DNA of 55,341 nt, filler included, from an uncultured delta proteobacterium (lineage in GTDB: Bacteria > Desulfobacterota > Desulfobacteria > Desulfobacterales > SG8-13): the NCBI GenBank assembly GCA_963848135.1. It is 3 parts of 3 records of this genome, joined end to end, with 100 filler letters (N's around TTAATTAATTAA, not from the genome) between each part and the next. Parts side by side here need not be neighbours in the genome. Positions count along the whole stretch, not along the records: positions 1 to 28,506 come from CAWKCK010000006.1; 2 more parts are not named here. The stretch is one strand, 5' to 3'. Under the pieces are notes generated by a model that searched no databases, was not told the DNA's origin, and was given only the letters and a program-made list of their open reading frames with translations. The position numbers were made by a program, and so were the translations under genes. Shown in pieces: positions 21,199 to 35,676 of the stretch; the stretch's first letter is position 1, and every line of letters begins with the position of its first letter.

Positions 21199-21654
21199 AT
21201 GATCAATACCGCAGTTTTCAGTATCCCGATCCAGCATAGCGCCAACCAGGGATTAACAGATCTGCTGTTTGAGGCATTAACAGTGGCAATTCCACGTTGG
21301 CCGAAACCCTCGCTTGAGAAGAAGACCCATCTAATGAAAAAATTAACCGACTATATCAATGATCACATCAATGAATCCATCACGCTAGCGGAAATGTGTG
21401 CCGTTGCAAAAATAAGCCCCCGGACCATTCAACGCCTGTTTAAAGCGCACTTCGGATTGAGTCCGAAGGGTTACATTCGTGCCCGTCGGCTAAACGAGGT
21501 GCGCCATGCTATCTATAAAAACAAAGGTACCTACGACGAAAAGATTTCGGATATAGCTAGCCGGTGGGGTTTTTGGCATATGGGCCAATTCGCATCGGAT
21601 TATAGGCGTTTTTTTGGAGAGCTTCCTTTACAAACATTAGGAACATTGAAATAA
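21199..21654 (+). CDS. AraC-family regulator, C-terminal HTH domain only (EutR-like; probably truncated)
   Basis: SPRTIQRLFKAHFGLSPKGY and ISDIASRWGFWHMGQFASDYRRFFGELP. No sensing domain; the upstream DNA contains stops. Confidence 0.75.
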   Translation: MINTAVFSIPIQHSANQGLTDLLFEALTVAIPRWPKPSLEKKTHLMKKLTDYINDHINESITLAEMCAVAKISPRTIQRLFKAHFGLSPKGYIRARRLNEVRHAIYKNKGTYDEKISDIASRWGFWHMGQFASDYRRFFGELPLQTLGTLK

Positions 21655-22029: not shown

Positions 22030-25017
22030 ATGAAAACAACCCAATTATGCTTGCACCAATTATTTCAGTTTCAAGTAGATCGAACTCCGGCTTCAGTTGC
22101 CGTTGTTGATGGTGGCAAGGTTTTAACCTATAAGGAACTCGATCGATTGTCAGATTATTTAGCGGGATTTTTCCAAAAACATGGAGTAACATTTGATAAA
22201 ACTGTCGGAATTTTTATGGAGACATGTGCTGAATATGTCATTTCCTATATCGCCGCTCTAAAGGCGGGAGGAGCTTATATACCTTTAGATATAGCCTATC
22301 CTAATTCCTTGTTGGAAAAAATGCTTGACGAAACAAAACCAAAAGTCATTGTTACCAAAAGTCATTACTCACACAGGCTGCATTCCTCCCTTGTTGCAAA
22401 AATACTAAACATTGATATAGATGAAACCTGGCAACTTTATAAATATGATAAGGGCATAGTCTCTTCAATCTCTTCAAACAATTTAGCCTATATTGTCTAT
22501 TCCTCAGGCACAACAGGAGCGCCTAAAGGAATATTGGCGCCTCATCAAGGATCTGTCCACTCGTATACTCAAAGATATAAGTCAAGTTCATATCAACCTG
22601 GTGACCGAGTGGCGTGCAATATATTTTTTGTTTGGGAAATATTAAGACCACTACTCAAAGGAGCAACCTGTTACATAATTCCAGATGATATCATTTACGA
22701 CCCTAAACCCCTTATCGACTTTTTGGCTGAACACAAAATTACCGAAATTCTATTTACTCCATCATTGCTGTTAACGGTTATCAACTCAGTTGATGCTGAT
22801 ATAATTCGATGTAAATTGTCATCACTGAAAGTAATCTGGCTCAATGGTGAGGTTGTGACTACAAGGCTTAAGAATAGAATTTTAAAAATAGTACCGGATC
22901 ATGTGCGCCTTCTAAATACATACAGTATCAGCGAATGCCATGATGTCGCCGATGTAGATCTGCGTGTAGTTGAGGACTTTCCTTCAGGAATGTGTCCTGT
23001 TGGAAAACCTATAGAAGGAGTAGAGATAAGGTTACTTGATGAACATATGCAACAGGTACCTTCAGATAGCACTGGAGAGCTGTATGTTGGAGGCCAATGC
23101 CTGACCCGAGGATATCTGAACAAGCCGGATCTTACAGCAGACCGATTTGTGTTTATAGACGGAAAAAGGTTTTTTAGAACCGGTGATTTGGCCGATATAC
23201 ATCCAGATGGAATGATAGAAATCAAAGGGCGCTGTGACCACATGGTCAAGATCCGAGGATACAGTATCCAATTAGGAGCCGTAGAGACAGTTTTGCTTGA
23301 ACACGCAAATGTTAAAAACTGTGCGGTCATAGCAGAAGGTAAAGAAGGGGAGCATAAACGACTTGTAGCATATGTTGTAAGGCATGAAACCGCAAATTGG
23401 AAAATTGACGAAAAGACTGGAATTAGTGTGGAAATCCGGAACAGATTAAAGCCCTACATGCCGCATTATATGATCCCCAGCACATATGTTGAAATAGAAA
23501 ATATACCAATTAATCCTATGACAGGAAAACTCTATCGACAGAAGCTACCTTCACCGCCACCTAAATATGAATATGATTTTCAGAATATTAAGCTCAGCGA
23601 GGATGCCTCTCAGGAAGAACAGGAAGCTGTCATGAGAGCATTGTGGGAGCGAATCCTATTTTTAGCTCCAGGGAGTATTAATAATGATTCCAATTTTTTT
23701 GATTTCGGTGGCCACTCATTATTGGCTGTTGAATTAACTATAATTATTGAAAATATTTTTGACATTAAACTTAAAGTTAAAAATATTTACGAATATCCTA
23801 CCGTTACAGAGATAGTTCACCACATTCAAAACGATGCAGATAGTGGTTTGCGGCCCCTTTCAATCAAAGAGGATGCTTATTTAGATCATTCTATTACCCC
23901 CGGTTCGACCAAAACACCGTTGTCTGTACTTGATGCAAAGTCAATTTTTATTACCGGAACTACAGGTTTCTTGGGCGCATTCCTACTTGATGAATTATTA
24001 AGGAAAACAAAAGATCATGTAAAAATATACTGTCTAGTACGTTTAGAAAAGGGAGACCGTAAGGATGCACTAAATCGTATCATCGATAATCTTAAATATT
24101 ATCAAATATACGATCCTAACATGAAAAAACGTATTATTTCTGTTACCGGTGATTTAACAAAAAAATATTTTGGATTGTCGATTGAACATTTCAATGAATT
24201 TGCGAAAAAAATCGATTTTATCTTTCATTGTGCTTCTCTCGTAAATTATGTCTATTCTTATGCTGTAATCAAGCCGACTGCGGTAAACGGTACTCATGAG
24301 ATCCTGCGATTCGCGTGCACCTCCGCAACTAAATCTATTCATTACATCTCAACAAACGGCATATTCCCAGGTGAACACAAAACAGCATATTTAGAAAACA
24401 GTGATATCGATTCATTTGCAGATCAATTAGGAAATGGATATGGCCAGGCAAAGTGGGTTGCTGAAAAATTGATTTGGGAAGCTGTCTCAAGAGGAGTGCC
24501 CGTGTGTTTGTATCGTCCTGGTAATATAGGACATCATAGTGTTACAGGTGCATCAAATCCAAATGATTTTATTTCCATGATTATTGATGCCTGCATGAAG
24601 TTAAAATGTGCTCCTGATGAAGACAAATGGACATTTGAAATGACCCCTGTAGACTTCTTGGTTAAATCTATTGTTCTTTTTGCAAGCAAATCATCACATT
24701 TCGGGCAGGTATTTAATGTGGTGCAAAACAATGCCGTACCAGGCAAGACAGTATTTGATTTGTTGCTTGAGATGAAAATGATATCTAAATATGTATCCAT
24801 TGATGAGTGGAAATCGATGTTATACACAAAGGCAGAAGAAGAAGGCGATTATCTTCTGAATGTTTTGGCCCAATCTCTTGATGACGTCGAAAAGTATTTA
24901 AACGATGAAACTATTTATGATTGCTCTCGCTTCGAAAATGCTTTGGCTAAATATTGCCTCCAGCGACCGCTCACAGATCCATATTATTTCAAAAAATTGA
25001 TTCATGCTAAGCTTTAG
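22030..25017 (+). CDS. Stand-alone NRPS-like reductase (adenylation - thiolation - thioester reductase), similar to fungal glycine betaine reductase ATRR
   Basis: A domain: YSSGTTGAPKG, GELYVGG, RTGD, KIRGY. T domain: FFDFGGHSL. R domain: TGTTGFLG, GYGQAKWVAE. No condensation domain. Substrate-pocket segment ACNIFFVWEILRP. Confidence 0.9.
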   Translation: MKTTQLCLHQLFQFQVDRTPASVAVVDGGKVLTYKELDRLSDYLAGFFQKHGVTFDKTVGIFMETCAEYVISYIAALKAGGAYIPLDIAYPNSLLEKMLDETKPKVIVTKSHYSHRLHSSLVAKILNIDIDETWQLYKYDKGIVSSISSNNLAYIVYSSGTTGAPKGILAPHQGSVHSYTQRYKSSSYQPGDRVACNIFFVWEILRPLLKGATCYIIPDDIIYDPKPLIDFLAEHKITEILFTPSLLLTVINSVDADIIRCKLSSLKVIWLNGEVVTTRLKNRILKIVPDHVRLLNTYSISECHDVADVDLRVVEDFPSGMCPVGKPIEGVEIRLLDEHMQQVPSDSTGELYVGGQCLTRGYLNKPDLTADRFVFIDGKRFFRTGDLADIHPDGMIEIKGRCDHMVKIRGYSIQLGAVETVLLEHANVKNCAVIAEGKEGEHKRLVAYVVRHETANWKIDEKTGISVEIRNRLKPYMPHYMIPSTYVEIENIPINPMTGKLYRQKLPSPPPKYEYDFQNIKLSEDASQEEQEAVMRALWERILFLAPGSINNDSNFFDFGGHSLLAVELTIIIENIFDIKLKVKNIYEYPTVTEIVHHIQNDADSGLRPLSIKEDAYLDHSITPGSTKTPLSVLDAKSIFITGTTGFLGAFLLDELLRKTKDHVKIYCLVRLEKGDRKDALNRIIDNLKYYQIYDPNMKKRIISVTGDLTKKYFGLSIEHFNEFAKKIDFIFHCASLVNYVYSYAVIKPTAVNGTHEILRFACTSATKSIHYISTNGIFPGEHKTAYLENSDIDSFADQLGNGYGQAKWVAEKLIWEAVSRGVPVCLYRPGNIGHHSVTGASNPNDFISMIIDACMKLKCAPDEDKWTFEMTPVDFLVKSIVLFASKSSHFGQVFNVVQNNAVPGKTVFDLLLEMKMISKYVSIDEWKSMLYTKAEEEGDYLLNVLAQSLDDVEKYLNDETIYDCSRFENALAKYCLQRPLTDPYYFKKLIHAKL

Positions 25018-25609
25018 CGCGAAACTTTCAATTGATAATAGTGTTGATATTGTAAAAGCAGATACCAACGATATTGCTAATTATTTTTTAGAGCAATTCG
25101 ATGTTCTGATTAATATCATAAACATTATCTCACCCCCAAAAATATATCATGCCATGCCCTGCCTTGCTGTGCACGGCGACTATCATCCAGGGTATCTTAA
25201 GTATAAGGACGGTAAAGTAACGGGTGGGTTTGATTTTGGTTGGTCAGAAATTAATGCCAGGTGTTTTGATGTAGGCCATGCAATAATGCACTTTTGCACC
25301 AATTGGGGGATTATCAACGATTGAATTCTGCAGCTTGATCGAGTGGAACAATTTTTGGGTGCATATCAAGAACAAACCAAACATAAACAAACGATTGGGC
25401 CCTTAAATACACTTGAGCTGGAATATCTTCCACATATGATCTATATGGGAAATCTGATGGTCATTGACTGGATATTAAGTGAATTTTACGGAAACGGTCA
25501 ATATCCTCAACAATATTTGAAATATTTACGACATAGCATGTCGTTAAATCGATGGTTGGAATGCAATTGGGAAGAACTTGCAAACTGTATTCAGCGACAT
25601 AGCACCTAA
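25004..25609 (+). pseudogene. Degenerate APH/choline-kinase-fold phosphotransferase
   Basis: HGDYHPGY (Brenner motif with Asn replaced by Tyr), FDFGW, in-frame TGA at 25322-25324, N-lobe missing. Paralogous to 27441-28506. Confidence 0.75.
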
Positions 25610-25782
25610 TACAATCAAACCAAAATCCAATTCAGAAAAGCTCATCACTTTAAACTTATCAAAATATTTATTTCGAATCTCATGATCTTTTACGGCTTGG
25701 AAGAAGTATAAATTGAATCATATTATTTTTACAATTAATTATAGCAACATTGTGTCAACAATTGAATATGGGGACAGGGTCT

Positions 25783-27099
25783 ATGGATAGTTATCTAAAA
25801 ATGATGAAAAATATTAATAAGTTATACCGTAAATACGAAGAGCAGATGGTCAAGATTACGCCGGATGCATCGGATTTTTCAACATTTATCGAAAATTTGA
25901 ATGAGCCACAATTTCACGGGATGATGGCTGGAATCCCGGCACTGTTCGGCGCAATAGATGATTCTCTTTTTAAGCATACATTTTCAATAGAGAATCTAAA
26001 AAAACTTACAGAGAGTGACAACCGATGGGATAAAGTGCTTAAAACCACTAGAAATATGCCCCTCTCGATGGACTTGACTGATTCTGAACAGGAAAGGCAG
26101 GCTTTTGACATTTCAGAGCTTTTGTTGGACCTTTATCCATCGGAGGAGGAGTTGAGGAGAGTTAACTCTCGCATTGTCATCGAGCATCGGAAGTATCCCG
26201 TCATTCTTCACCTCGCTACAAAACTTGCTCTATCAAAAAAATCTTTAGAATCTATTTCATCCCCAATTTTTAATAGTTTTATTGTTGCGATGTATAATGA
26301 GCACAACCGCATTCGCACTATTATGGAGCATCCTTCCGGAGAGGATTTTTTGAGGCGAAAAGTATCACAGTTAAATTGGCTATTCGAAGGCGAAATTGAC
26401 AAAAAATGGGAACTCATTTTTGTTGATGACGGCTGTCCTGAAAAAAGCGGTGAAATTGCGGCAGAAATCATCCAACAAGAGAAATATAACAATGTAAGGG
26501 TGCTGTTCCTGGTTGACGGAATTGAAGAAGGAACTCCGGTTACTAAAAAAATGCAATCTACAGCCGATAGTCAAAAGGGAGGTGCTATTCAATTTGGGAT
26601 GTGGTCGGCAATTCAAGAACATCACGGCAATGACCGTCACATTGTTTTTTTTACCGATTCTGACTTGTCAACAAACATTGCTCAGGCCGGTTTATTGTTG
26701 CGCCAGCTTGAAGACCGAAATAGGATGTGTGCCATTGGTACTCGTTATTCTGCCGGTGGCGTATACTGTACCTCAAAAGGCGCAATGGGTGTGACCGACC
26801 ACGATCGCTTGATGCTGGTGTTTCGTCATTTTATTCGATCGAAGCTTTTACCGCAAATCGGAGAAATCATAGACACCCAATGCGGCTTCAAGGCATTTAA
26901 AACCGAAATTTTGAAAAATGTGTTGGTTAAGATGACTGACAAGCGTTTTTCCTTTGACATGGAGCTTCTGTTACTGACAGCTCTACAATGCGGAACCAGA
27001 GACGATTTTATAGGTGAAGCTCCCATTGTTTGGATAGAAAGCAATGAAGAATCAAATTTCTACACGGCACAGTTAGAAGCCCGTGTTCGACAGCCATAG
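25783..27099 (+). CDS. GT2 glycosyltransferase (polyprenol-phosphate glycosyltransferase/ALG5-DPM-like) with long N-terminal extension
   Basis: VAMYNE, FVDDG, KGGAI, FTDSD (DxD), DTQCGFKAF, FSFDMELL. Confidence 0.85.
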   Translation: MDSYLKMMKNINKLYRKYEEQMVKITPDASDFSTFIENLNEPQFHGMMAGIPALFGAIDDSLFKHTFSIENLKKLTESDNRWDKVLKTTRNMPLSMDLTDSEQERQAFDISELLLDLYPSEEELRRVNSRIVIEHRKYPVILHLATKLALSKKSLESISSPIFNSFIVAMYNEHNRIRTIMEHPSGEDFLRRKVSQLNWLFEGEIDKKWELIFVDDGCPEKSGEIAAEIIQQEKYNNVRVLFLVDGIEEGTPVTKKMQSTADSQKGGAIQFGMWSAIQEHHGNDRHIVFFTDSDLSTNIAQAGLLLRQLEDRNRMCAIGTRYSAGGVYCTSKGAMGVTDHDRLMLVFRHFIRSKLLPQIGEIIDTQCGFKAFKTEILKNVLVKMTDKRFSFDMELLLLTALQCGTRDDFIGEAPIVWIESNEESNFYTAQLEARVRQP

Positions 27100-27440: not shown

Positions 27441-28506
27441 ATGAAAGACGTTGAAGTAAAAGAGAGCAAATATGGGACTGTTGTCAGACCTAAAAGAATG
27501 AGCGTCTTACACAAACAATTCGTCTTTTATTGGAAGAAAATTACGATCTTGGGAAGCTGACACGGATCAAGGAGGTTTTAGGGGGTATTGCAATAAAAGT
27601 TATGCGGTATGGATGTCGACCCACGATCGCACTCATCGGTATTTTCTGCGTTTGTATAATCCCAAAGTCATCGAAAATGAAATCTTGTTTGAACACGCCC
27701 TCCTGAATCATTTGAGATCAAATGGGTTCACCCTTGCGGCAGCCATTTTTCCATGCCGGAACCGTGAAACGTTCGTATACACCCCGCCTCCTGAAAATCA
27801 CCAGGGAACAAGAGCGCTATGGGGGTTATTTGAGTCTCTTGAAGGGGAAGATAAATATTCCTGGAACTACACCGATCTGACAGATAAAGAATTCATCAGC
27901 GCCGCTGAAATCCTCGCCCATCTTCACCACTACGGGCATGGATTCAAAAAACCGCCCGGAGCAGATCGCGCCCAACCCCGGATAATGGAATTTATGACCA
28001 CATTCACAAAAACCTTTGCCGCGTTTTTGGAAACAAGCTGATGATCGTCGGTGTGACCGGTTATTCAAAGATAATTTTGAAACGATCTGTAGAGCCCTTG
28101 ATTATGCGGCTTCCTTTGATGTCAAATTTCAGGGGATGTCGGAAATACCGATTCATTGTGATTATCATCCCGGCAACTTAAAATTTCGCGATGAAAAAGG
28201 CATCGGCATTTTCGATTTTGATTGGTCTAAAATAGATTATCGGCTATTTGATGTCGCCCTGGGTCTCGTTTATTTTACCAGCATCTGGAACGACCAAGCA
28301 ACGGGACTTCGACCGGATAAATTTTTACTTTTTCTGAGCACTTACAATGAAGCCTGCCATCGGTTAGCCCGCATCAGCTCACTGACGGAGCAGGAACAGA
28401 GATATCTGGTTCCCATGCTTTCAATTGCCAACCTATATGTGCTCAATTGGGATTTGGCCGAATTTTATAGCACACCGGAGCCGGATGATGACAAGTATTA
28501 TATATT
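27441..28506 (+). CDS. APH/choline-kinase/type II homoserine kinase-fold phosphotransferase (three homopolymer frameshifts; truncated by the gap)
   Basis: Correcting the A4 (~27492), G5 (27581-27585) and A3 (~28031) runs gives one frame: ...YDLGKL..IKEVLGGYCNKSY...YFLRLY...FEHALLNHL...LAHLH...HCDYHPGN...FDFDW...FDVA. Confidence 0.8.
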
Positions 28507-28606
28507 NNNNNNNNNNNNNNNNNNNNNNNNNNNNNNNNNNNNNNNNNNNNTTAATTAATTAANNNNNNNNNNNNNNNNNNNNNNNNNNNNNNNNNNNNNN
28601 NNNNNN
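28507..28606. other. Assembly gap with artificial six-frame-stop linker
   Basis: N44-TTAATTAATTAA-N44. Confidence 0.97.
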
Positions 28607-35576: not shown

Positions 35577-35676
35577 NNNNNNNNNNNNNNNNNNNNNNNN
35601 NNNNNNNNNNNNNNNNNNNNTTAATTAATTAANNNNNNNNNNNNNNNNNNNNNNNNNNNNNNNNNNNNNNNNNNNN
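35577..35676. other. Assembly gap with artificial six-frame-stop linker
   Basis: N44-TTAATTAATTAA-N44. Confidence 0.97.

Follow-up and report, generated by a model that had tools for sequence, protein, structure and literature searches.

The window, by which we mean the whole stretch of 55,341 nucleotides analysed here, comes from an uncultured delta proteobacterium (Desulfobacterales, assembly GCA_963848135.1). On its plus strand, at 22030..25017, it carries the gene of an adenylation-thiolation-reductase (A-T-R) enzyme that we propose to be a glycine betaine reductase. ORF (open reading frame) calling gives a single frame of 995 codons without interruption, from an ATG start to a TAG stop. 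The proposal turns on the likeness of its product, called the window protein below, to ATRR of Aspergillus nidulans, an enzyme with two reductase domains (A-T-R1-R2) that converts the osmolyte glycine betaine to choline.

Pfam places an adenylation (A) domain at residues 12-363 (AMP-binding, PF00501, E 2.9e-64) with its C-terminal subdomain at 418-494 (AMP-binding_C, PF13193), together encoded at 22063..23511; the motifs SGTTG, FRTGD and GRCDHMVKIRG were located at residues 159, 382 and 400, along with K500. A thiolation (carrier) domain follows at residues 535-599 (23632..23826, PP-binding, 6.3e-15), with Ser563 in GGHSL encoded by 23716-23718, and then a thioester reductase (R) domain (23944..24951). 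The latter passes TIGR01746 (261.9 bits against a cut-off of 213.35, residues 639-974), matches NAD_binding_4 at residues 641-881 (E 5.6e-62), and has both GxxGxxG, as GTTGFLG at residue 643, and YxxxK, as Y804 and K808; its best match among solved structures is MxaA (4u7w, E 1e-60). Neither a condensation (C) domain nor a second reductase was found by Pfam in the 995-aa protein, which ends at residue 995 and so has no fused C-terminal short-chain dehydrogenase/reductase (SDR) of the kind that completes the ATRR architecture. An earlier note, made from the DNA alone, had described a stand-alone A-T-R enzyme without a C domain or second reductase, and the Pfam domain order agrees. No further gene of a nonribosomal peptide synthetase (NRPS) lies near the A-T-R gene, and the best other AMP-binding match in the genome is only 25% identical. 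The gene is under purifying selection, since its dN/dS is 0.34 and 0.22 relative to two related loci (L020 and L021, respectively).

The substrate pocket and its counterpart in ATRR

The A4 segment of the A domain, ACNIFFVWEILRP (residues 195-207), contains I198-F199-F200-V201-W202 (22621..22635, plus strand) and no Asp. When it is aligned with five NRPS A domains that have FD at this place, the Asp column falls on I198 or on F200 depending on gap placement, and neither residue is acidic; the Asp of the usual FDxS is absent, as the earlier note had said. The preprint on A. nidulans ATRR describes the pocket as an aromatic cage of F201, W204 and W270 with E304 as a nearby anion (Hai, Huang and Tang, bioRxiv 10.1101/559534). 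Residues 201/204/270/304 are F/W/W/E in 3 of the 4 Aspergillus A-T-R-SDR proteins that we examined, and in a MAFFT alignment they correspond to F199, W202, W270 (22837..22839, plus strand) and D305 (22942..22944, plus strand) of the window protein. F199 and W202 would thus be the first two cage residues and W270 the third, and D305 is predicted to face the ammonium head. This is the ATRR pocket, without Asp235 and with the F/W/W cage, in which D305 replaces E304 and the charge is thereby kept.

Ten specificity positions were placed by way of the classical core motifs and with no tool, on the basis of established A-domain knowledge. The resulting code is IFWLWNTDVK in the window protein and VFWLWNCEIK in the fungal proteins, with 6 identical positions and 4 conservative ones; position 322 is Thr in the former and Cys in the latter. 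The pocket comparison put forward in the earlier note thus came out on the side of ATRR, as did the nearly shared segments that the note had named, for QPGDRVACNVFF(I/V)WEILRPLLRGAT, ITETLMTPTLL and WLNGEVVT(T/A) all occur in the Aspergillus A-T-R-SDR proteins.

ATRR-like proteins were collected with the A-T part as the query and scored on residues 180-320, among proteins of 1121-3200 aa; 483 of 644 candidates matched at E <= 0.001. The best 120 of these 483 are 49-61% identical to the window protein over the pocket region alone (residues 180-320). Most of them (107 of the 120) are shorter than 1500 aa, being A-T-R(-SDR) proteins of about 1150-1400 aa; the majority are fungal, of about 1250-1350 aa, with the layout (AMP-binding, PP-binding, NAD_binding_4, adh_short/KR) of A-T-R1-R2; an Aspergillus member (P0376) has its extra adh_short domain at 1034-1223. 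The code VFWLWNCEIK is present in 69 of the 107. Over ~1000 residues the window protein is 37.5-38.2% identical to the Aspergillus A-T-R-SDR proteins (632-669 bits), and 29-31% identical to terminal NRPS A-T-R modules (406-451 bits).

With A. nidulans ATRR the window protein thus shares the A-T-R1 core, the absence of Asp235, the cage, an acidic residue in the same column, the carrier Ser and the reductase motifs. It differs in being without R2 (995 aa, against ~1270 aa), in having Asp where the fungi have Glu and Thr at position 322 where they have Cys, and in its bacterial host and separate clade. An ATRR-type protein outside the fungi, the nematode MiATRR, can be likened to it by published description only: MiATRR has 1306 aa and is A-T-R1-R2, as opposed to A-T-R in the window protein, and it is assigned to glycine betaine metabolism although only 5 of its 10 pocket positions equal those of A. 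nidulans (PMC11050029).

The bacterial family and its phylogenetic position

We assembled a family set of 121 sequences, namely the window protein and 120 listed near-length relatives of 46-94% identity. The relatives are almost all of 990-1035 aa, the shorter ones including records named partial, and adh_short is missing from the precomputed Pfam lists of all 120. Across the set the pocket is nearly invariant: in the F199 column 117 sequences have F, 1 has Y and 3 have a gap; in the W202 column 119 have W and 2 a gap; in the W270 column 119 have W, 1 has Y and 1 a gap; N272 is N and D305 is D in 120 each (gap in 1), and the exact code IFWLWNTDVK is found in 82. K500 and the carrier Ser563 are each kept in all 121, and Y804 with K808 in all 119 ungapped sequences.

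The named sources of the relatives are Deltaproteobacteria, Desulfobacteraceae, Desulfosarcinaceae, SAR202, Nitrospinales, Tectomicrobia and Magnetoglobus metagenome-assembled genomes (MAGs), to which species-representative genomes add Rubrobacter, a Burkholderiales MAG, a 'Vulcanimicrobiota' MAG and others; to judge from these sequences, the stand-alone A-T-R family is widespread in environmental bacteria. It is also patchy. Of 201 genomes sampled from the order, and likewise of 401 from the phylum, this query found the gene in the window's own genome and in no other, and two genomes of the same genus were without it; the order and phylum counts are samples in which few first-look candidates were scored per genome. 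The best 150 matches of a representative search with the full protein are all giant multi-module NRPS of 4653-7864 aa, which fill the search because their summed scores swamp single-module relatives.

Two trees were built, both quick searches supported by the SH-like approximate likelihood ratio test (SH-aLRT) only, with ATRR-like rows picked by likeness in the pocket region, outgroups from a few giant NRPS and no rows for carboxylic acid reductases (CARs) or Lys2. The A-domain tree has 69 rows (25 bacterial A-T-R, 11 fungal, 5 other eukaryotic, 8 bacterial hybrids with polyketide synthases (PKS), and an outgroup of 20 NRPS A domains from four giant NRPS). Its A-T-R, fungal, other eukaryotic and PKS-hybrid groups form one clade apart from the NRPS A domains (SH-aLRT 100), and the bacterial A-T-R group is monophyletic (SH-aLRT 98). 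In the A-T-R tree (49 rows) the main bacterial clade, including the window protein, is monophyletic (SH-aLRT 100), the grouping with ATRR-type proteins against 5 terminal A-T-R modules reaches the same support, and an actinobacterial subgroup is sister to the fungal proteins, again at SH-aLRT 100. The window protein is thus a member of a bacterial clade beside the fungal ATRR-type proteins. The earlier note had expected it to group with ATRR rather than with CARs, Lys2 or ordinary A domains. The trees uphold this with respect to the NRPS A domains, and CARs and Lys2 are excluded by model cut-offs only: the window protein scores 191.8 bits on the CAR model NF041592 (cut-off 1300) and 352.3 bits on TIGR03443, the Lys2 (L-aminoadipate-semialdehyde dehydrogenase) model (cut-off 1030.1), and since both scores are far below the cut-offs it belongs to neither family.

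These results bear on the idea that the protein is an ordinary NRPS-like reductase of an amino or aryl acid (Lys2-like, CAR-like, or forming amino-aldehydes or pyrazines) whose pocket resembles that of ATRR by convergence or irrelevantly, an idea that we find scarcely credible. CARs and Lys2 do share its chemistry, in which the acid is activated as an adenylate, transferred to phosphopantetheine and, as a thioester, reduced to an aldehyde. The scores on generic NRPS models are good, with 466 bits on the model of MxcG-type terminal NRPS A-T-R modules (NF038078), which have the same domain order, and 304.1 bits on TIGR01733 (amino acid adenylation domain), just under its cut-off of 317.4; a protein language model search with the A domain gave only generic adenylation clusters. 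However, the Asp that binds the alpha-amino group is absent, the CAR and Lys2 scores fall far short, and the grouping with ATRR-type proteins has SH-aLRT 100. Unlike the terminal NRPS modules, moreover, the window protein stands alone, with no C domain, no further NRPS gene nearby and a place outside the NRPS A-domain clade.

In the actinobacterial subgroup ATRR is split over two genes. This two-gene form was seen at eight loci (L010, L011, L049, L051, L052, L054, L060 and L061; L010 and L011 are labelled as Rubrobacteraceae and Rubrobacter MAGs, the rest are metagenome contigs), for example at L011:1053-4841, L054:10001-13821 and L061:10001-13806. Like the window protein, its A-T-R proteins are stand-alone and bacterial, and they fall in the same superclade, with 41-45% identity to the window protein and 44-46% to Aspergillus ATRR; they differ from it in having Met or Leu at the W270 column, with Glu at 305, and a dedicated R2-like SDR gene. 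This separate gene lies downstream in 5 of the 8 loci (directly in L011, L054, L060 and L061, second in L052), that is, wherever the contig runs past the A-T-R gene, and its product is 62-64% identical to R2 of the Aspergillus proteins (63% over 252 residues in L054, E 6e-120; 64% over 243 in L061). Together with the sister position to the fungal enzymes, the two-gene form suggests gene fusion or transfer between actinobacterial and fungal lineages.

The PKS hybrids are bacterial synthases of about 2000-2570 aa with the domain order TE-A-T-KS-AT-KR-ACP (thioesterase, A, T, ketosynthase, acyltransferase, ketoreductase, acyl carrier protein), in which the loading A domain has a betaine-type pocket, I/VFWLWNDDVK (proteins P0273-P0276, P0281, P0291, P0298, P0311, P0331-P0333, P0336 and P0337; loci L012:9179-16372, L014:9170-16477, L057 and L002:9201-12140). 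The next two genes in L012 are a glycine/sarcosine N-methyltransferase (GSMT; 465 bits, over the cut-off) and a gene like sarcosine/dimethylglycine N-methyltransferase (SDMT), and the PKS part of L002 has next to it a gene for an L-carnitine dehydrogenase that scores close to the cut-off. If such synthases extended betaine by one malonyl unit and reduced the keto group, carnitine would result; no paper on a betaine-primed carnitine synthase of this kind was found in the literature searched.

Gene neighbourhoods and the host genome

We called ORFs at 60 loci, made up of the window with 13 loci from genomes and 45 from metagenomes (one locus being counted under the window), and clustered at most five neighbours per side. 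Many of the loci are short contigs, so that neighbour counts are lower bounds on uneven denominators. Two kinds of gene recur. In 7 of the 60 loci, all in the 71-100% identity clade of the window, the next gene downstream on the same strand encodes a kinase of the APH family, and in another clade a pfkB-type kinase lies directly upstream (L040, L041 and L056); a PDB sequence search with the kinase of L001 gave no usable match (a homoserine kinase at E 1e-4). An SDR gene is found within three genes in 12 of the 60 loci, and directly downstream on the same strand in 6, its identity to R2 being 34-36% for the SAR202-type SDRs and only 26% for those of L022 and L028.

Other neighbours can be given more specific names. 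BCCT transporters are encoded just upstream in L025, L026 and L007; they pass the BCCT subfamily model, and their best NCBIfam model is 'glycine betaine uptake', with scores of 601 and 499 bits under its cut-off of 650. A tight same-strand unit of a pfkB kinase gene, the A-T-R gene and up to three methyltransferase genes (three in L041) occupies L041:687-7147 and L040:396-5320. Two of the three methyltransferases have as best model sarcosine/dimethylglycine N-methyltransferase (156 bits, scored on the L040 copy) and glycine/sarcosine N-methyltransferase (280 bits), both below the cut-offs, and we see in the unit a candidate operon for the synthesis of choline phosphate from glycine. In L002 the A-T-R gene converges with a block of minus-strand genes. 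Their products are a cytidylyltransferase, a LicD-like protein, a protein near L-carnitine dehydrogenase (406.5 bits, just under the cut-off of 414), a fusion of GSMT and SDMT that scores 463 bits on the GSMT model (cut-off 350) and thus passes it, and the AT-KR-ACP part of a PKS. The proteins of L002, L022, L025, L026, L040 and L041 equal the window protein at all aligned pocket positions, and that of L007 has one change. Because the pocket codes are identical, these contexts can be transferred to the window protein, and the neighbourhoods of the same-code relatives point independently to glycine betaine and choline metabolism.

The same neighbourhoods speak to whether the substrate could be another small onium carboxylate (dimethylsulfonioacetate, dimethylsulfoniopropionate (DMSP), beta-alanine betaine, proline betaine, carnitine or gamma-butyrobetaine), which we regard as improbable. 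A cage of this type recognises the cationic head group and not the whole molecule, and Asp for Glu with Thr for Cys could enlarge the pocket. The sequencing runs with related sequence are labelled sediment and salt-marsh metagenomes, habitats that are rich in DMSP. The sulfonium analogue is a substrate of fungal ATRR as well, at a ten-fold lower rate (bioRxiv 10.1101/559534). On the other side, those neighbours of same-code relatives that can be named are betaine-specific (the GSMT of L002, and the BCCT proteins with glycine betaine uptake as best model), and 6 of the 10 pocket positions equal those of fungal ATRR, the other four being conservative.

Some contexts do not speak for betaine. Close relatives of the window gene have a divergent Opp-type ABC system upstream. 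In a group of 47-50% identity (L036-L047 and L053, one metagenome), a 337-aa protein is encoded directly upstream on the same strand in 11 loci, with a PAS/sigma-54 activator directly downstream in 7; the 337-aa protein has no Pfam, NCBIfam or PDB match, and its 337-428-aa versions have no real match in PDB.

In the window itself, only the genes up to 28506 share a contig with the A-T-R gene, since the stretch joins three separate contig pieces (1-28506, the whole of C6; 28607-35576, the end of C7; 35677-55341, the whole of C8) through artificial spacers at 28507-28606 and 35577-35676, which are N runs around TTAATTAATTAA; genes beyond 28506 are thus unlinked to it. Upstream, at a distance of 375 bp, lies a gene for a 151-aa AraC-type helix-turn-helix regulator (21199..21654, plus strand; HTH_18, 9.9e-22), for which a regulatory role may be supposed; L020, with a reductase of 94% identity, has a homologous 154-aa ORF in the corresponding position. 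Downstream, also on the plus strand, three further features follow. The first, at 25082..25603, is what is left of an APH-family kinase gene, namely its C-terminal 174 codons, and it is interrupted by an in-frame TGA at 25322-25324. It corresponds to residues 198-371 of the kinase of L022 (373 aa), with 65% identity. The contigs of relatives, in four sequencing runs, read G at 25322 and so have GGA for TGA, and in two runs they part from the window sequence after 25058, as would be expected if the 5' part of the kinase gene had been lost from the window's genome.

The second (25750..27099) encodes a 449-aa glycosyltransferase-like protein of GT-A fold with a helical N-terminal half. Its Pfam match is weak (Glycos_transf_2, 2.1e-6) and a PDB sequence search gave no real match; the AlphaFold2 model (mean predicted local distance difference test score, pLDDT, 79.6) matches ArnC, dolichyl-phosphate mannose synthase (DPMS), GtrB and GpgS in Foldseek at E 1e-6 to 1e-4. 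A homologue in L022 (13397-14698) is encoded on the strand of the reductase gene, four genes further downstream. This GT-A-fold family of ~436 aa is common among Desulfobacterales-type metagenome proteins and has protist homologues of 37-41% identity. The third feature is a paralogous APH-family kinase gene at 27500..28498, seen by tblastn in three pieces (frames 3, 2 and 3) and cut by the contig end at 28506. Compared with the window, the relatives have an additional base at 27582/27585 and lack one at 28024/28031, and both sites lie in homopolymers (G5 and T5), so that the frameshifts may be real or may be assembly errors. The contigs compared are those of relatives, no sequencing run holding more than 0.30 of the sampled words, and for that reason they cannot settle the matter; likewise, transcription is not proved by the cover that contigs of one RNA library (X11) provide.

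It might be asked whether the A-T-R gene is itself a decaying remnant of a horizontally acquired island, no longer functional in this organism. Both flanking kinase genes are broken, the SDR and flavin mononucleotide (FMN)-reductase genes of L022 are missing at the window locus, and the gene was met in just the one genome among the 201 of the order and 401 of the phylum, with two genomes of the genus going without it. Yet the 995-codon frame is intact, all catalytic residues are kept, dN/dS is 0.22-0.34, and the kinase frameshifts in homopolymers may be artefacts of assembly; we consider decay very improbable.

The genome of the host, a sulfate-reducing bacterium, is 6.03 Mb long and 98.65% complete. 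Its dsrA match scores 611 bits (cut-off 393), which fits the anaerobic bacterium assumed in the earlier note. Four matches to the phosphopantetheinyl transferase (PPTase) family were found (on contigs C17, C7 (at 11924), C2 and C9), none of them in the three pieces of the window, just as that note had said of the window. Candidates for betaine uptake are one BCCT protein and four OpuAC matches. The genome has no GSMT over the cut-off, no MttB-family match and no CutC over the cut-off. It does encode a glycyl-radical enzyme of 842 aa (G000:C12:128432-130771, minus strand) that scores 487 bits on the choline trimethylamine-lyase model, whose cut-off is 1050.

Proposed route and its implications

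We think it rather probable that the window protein is a stand-alone NRPS-like carboxylate reductase, of a bacterial sister clade of eukaryotic ATRR, that acts on glycine betaine; that the substrate is of betaine type we would state with good confidence, and the whole chain as written below, with release of the aldehyde and a second step in trans, is in our view an even call. The domains, the catalytic residues, the pocket identity and the place in the trees come from the sequences themselves, whereas substrate, cofactor, product and downstream steps are what we infer. As in the A-T-R1 part of ATRR, the A domain would bind glycine betaine by cation-pi recognition, with its trimethylammonium group in the F199/W202/W270 cage, facing D305, and its carboxylate held by K500. 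It would adenylate the carboxylate at the expense of ATP and pass it on as a thioester to the phosphopantetheine arm of Ser563, an arm that one of the PPTases of the genome would put on. The R domain (GxxGxxG, Y804, K808) would then reduce the thioester by hydride transfer from NAD(P)H and release betaine aldehyde. As the A-T-R gene is without R2, choline would most likely be made by a separate reductase, and in the relatives the adjacent kinase would probably phosphorylate it; the recurrence of SDRs and kinases beside the gene makes it probable that the pathway continues beyond the aldehyde to choline or phosphocholine. In this genome betaine would be imported, by the BCCT and OpuAC-type systems, and not synthesised.

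A shorter route is conceivable, in which the R domain, as happens with some terminal reductase domains, carries out the two two-electron reductions itself and sets choline free, which would make a second reductase unnecessary. It would account for the L040/L041 unit and for the window's own clade, where a kinase gene stands beside the A-T-R gene with no reductase in the same-strand unit, and a kinase requires an alcohol as its substrate. The closest solved match of the R part is, moreover, MxaA, and MxaA releases an alcohol. We hold this route to be unlikely all the same. In ATRR, according to the preprint, R1 gives the aldehyde and R2 is needed for choline (bioRxiv 10.1101/559534). SDR genes near the A-T-R gene in 12 of 60 loci, and the dedicated actinobacterial R2-like gene (62-64% identical to fungal R2), point to a second enzyme as the ancestral solution.

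Several points weigh against glycine betaine reduction to choline as the function of the window protein. The substrate is deduced from four to ten pocket residues and from neighbours, in a clade known from its sequences only, and Asp in place of Glu, with Thr in place of Cys at position 322, could shift the specificity. Architecture alone does not fix the substrate either, since the diatom PtNRPS1, also A-T-R1-R2, is reported to reduce tryptophan. Neighbour counts are low and uneven because most of the 60 loci are short contigs, many loci have unrelated neighbours (Opp-type ABC transporters, sigma-54 activators), and the methyltransferase fusion of L002, on the opposite strand, may serve the adjacent PKS instead of the reductase. 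In the host genome both kinase genes adjacent to the A-T-R gene are disrupted, there is no LicD match, and no specific R2-like SDR was found; tblastn with the cytidylyltransferase, LicD-like and methyltransferase proteins of L002 gave no match either. The local pathway is in part decayed.

The enzyme kind is known from fungi and nematodes, and its bacterial stand-alone form is undescribed in the literature searched: we found no paper on a bacterial stand-alone A-T-R glycine betaine reductase in full-text searches, and the earlier note likewise knew of no characterised bacterial enzyme of this kind. The atrr genes have been called 'exclusive to eukaryotes' (Hai, Huang and Tang, bioRxiv 10.1101/559534), one marine study attributed transcripts of atrr homologues mainly to eukaryotic groups, and in a second the ATRR pathway was not represented in its metagenomes.

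One might speculate further and bring these observations together in a single reading, which as a whole we put forward tentatively and with less than even confidence. In it, bacteria would reduce glycine betaine to free choline by a route so far unrecognised, which relies on the widespread stand-alone A-T-R enzyme. Where glycine methyltransferases are combined with this route, as in the L041 operon and beside the gene in L002, complete de novo synthesis of choline from glycine would result, and the choline would go into phosphocholine, CDP-choline and LicD-type decoration, or into phosphatidylcholine. Eukaryotic ATRR would have its ancestor in the betaine-selecting A domain, with Rubrobacter-like two-gene forms as sister to the fungal enzyme. 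The same A domain would also prime the TE-A-T-KS-AT-KR-ACP synthases, which would make carnitine from betaine and one malonyl unit.

Free choline is usually regarded as imported by bacteria, and betaine as an end product or a catabolic substrate. If the proposal is true, a bacterial step in the reverse direction, driven by ATP and NAD(P)H, would alter the interpretation of betaine and choline pools in marine sediments, salt marshes and the deep ocean. It would also provide a concrete origin story for the eukaryotic enzyme, through gene fusion or transfer, together with natural variants of a cation-pi adenylation pocket ready for enzymology and biocatalysis, and it would open a testable route to bacterial choline.

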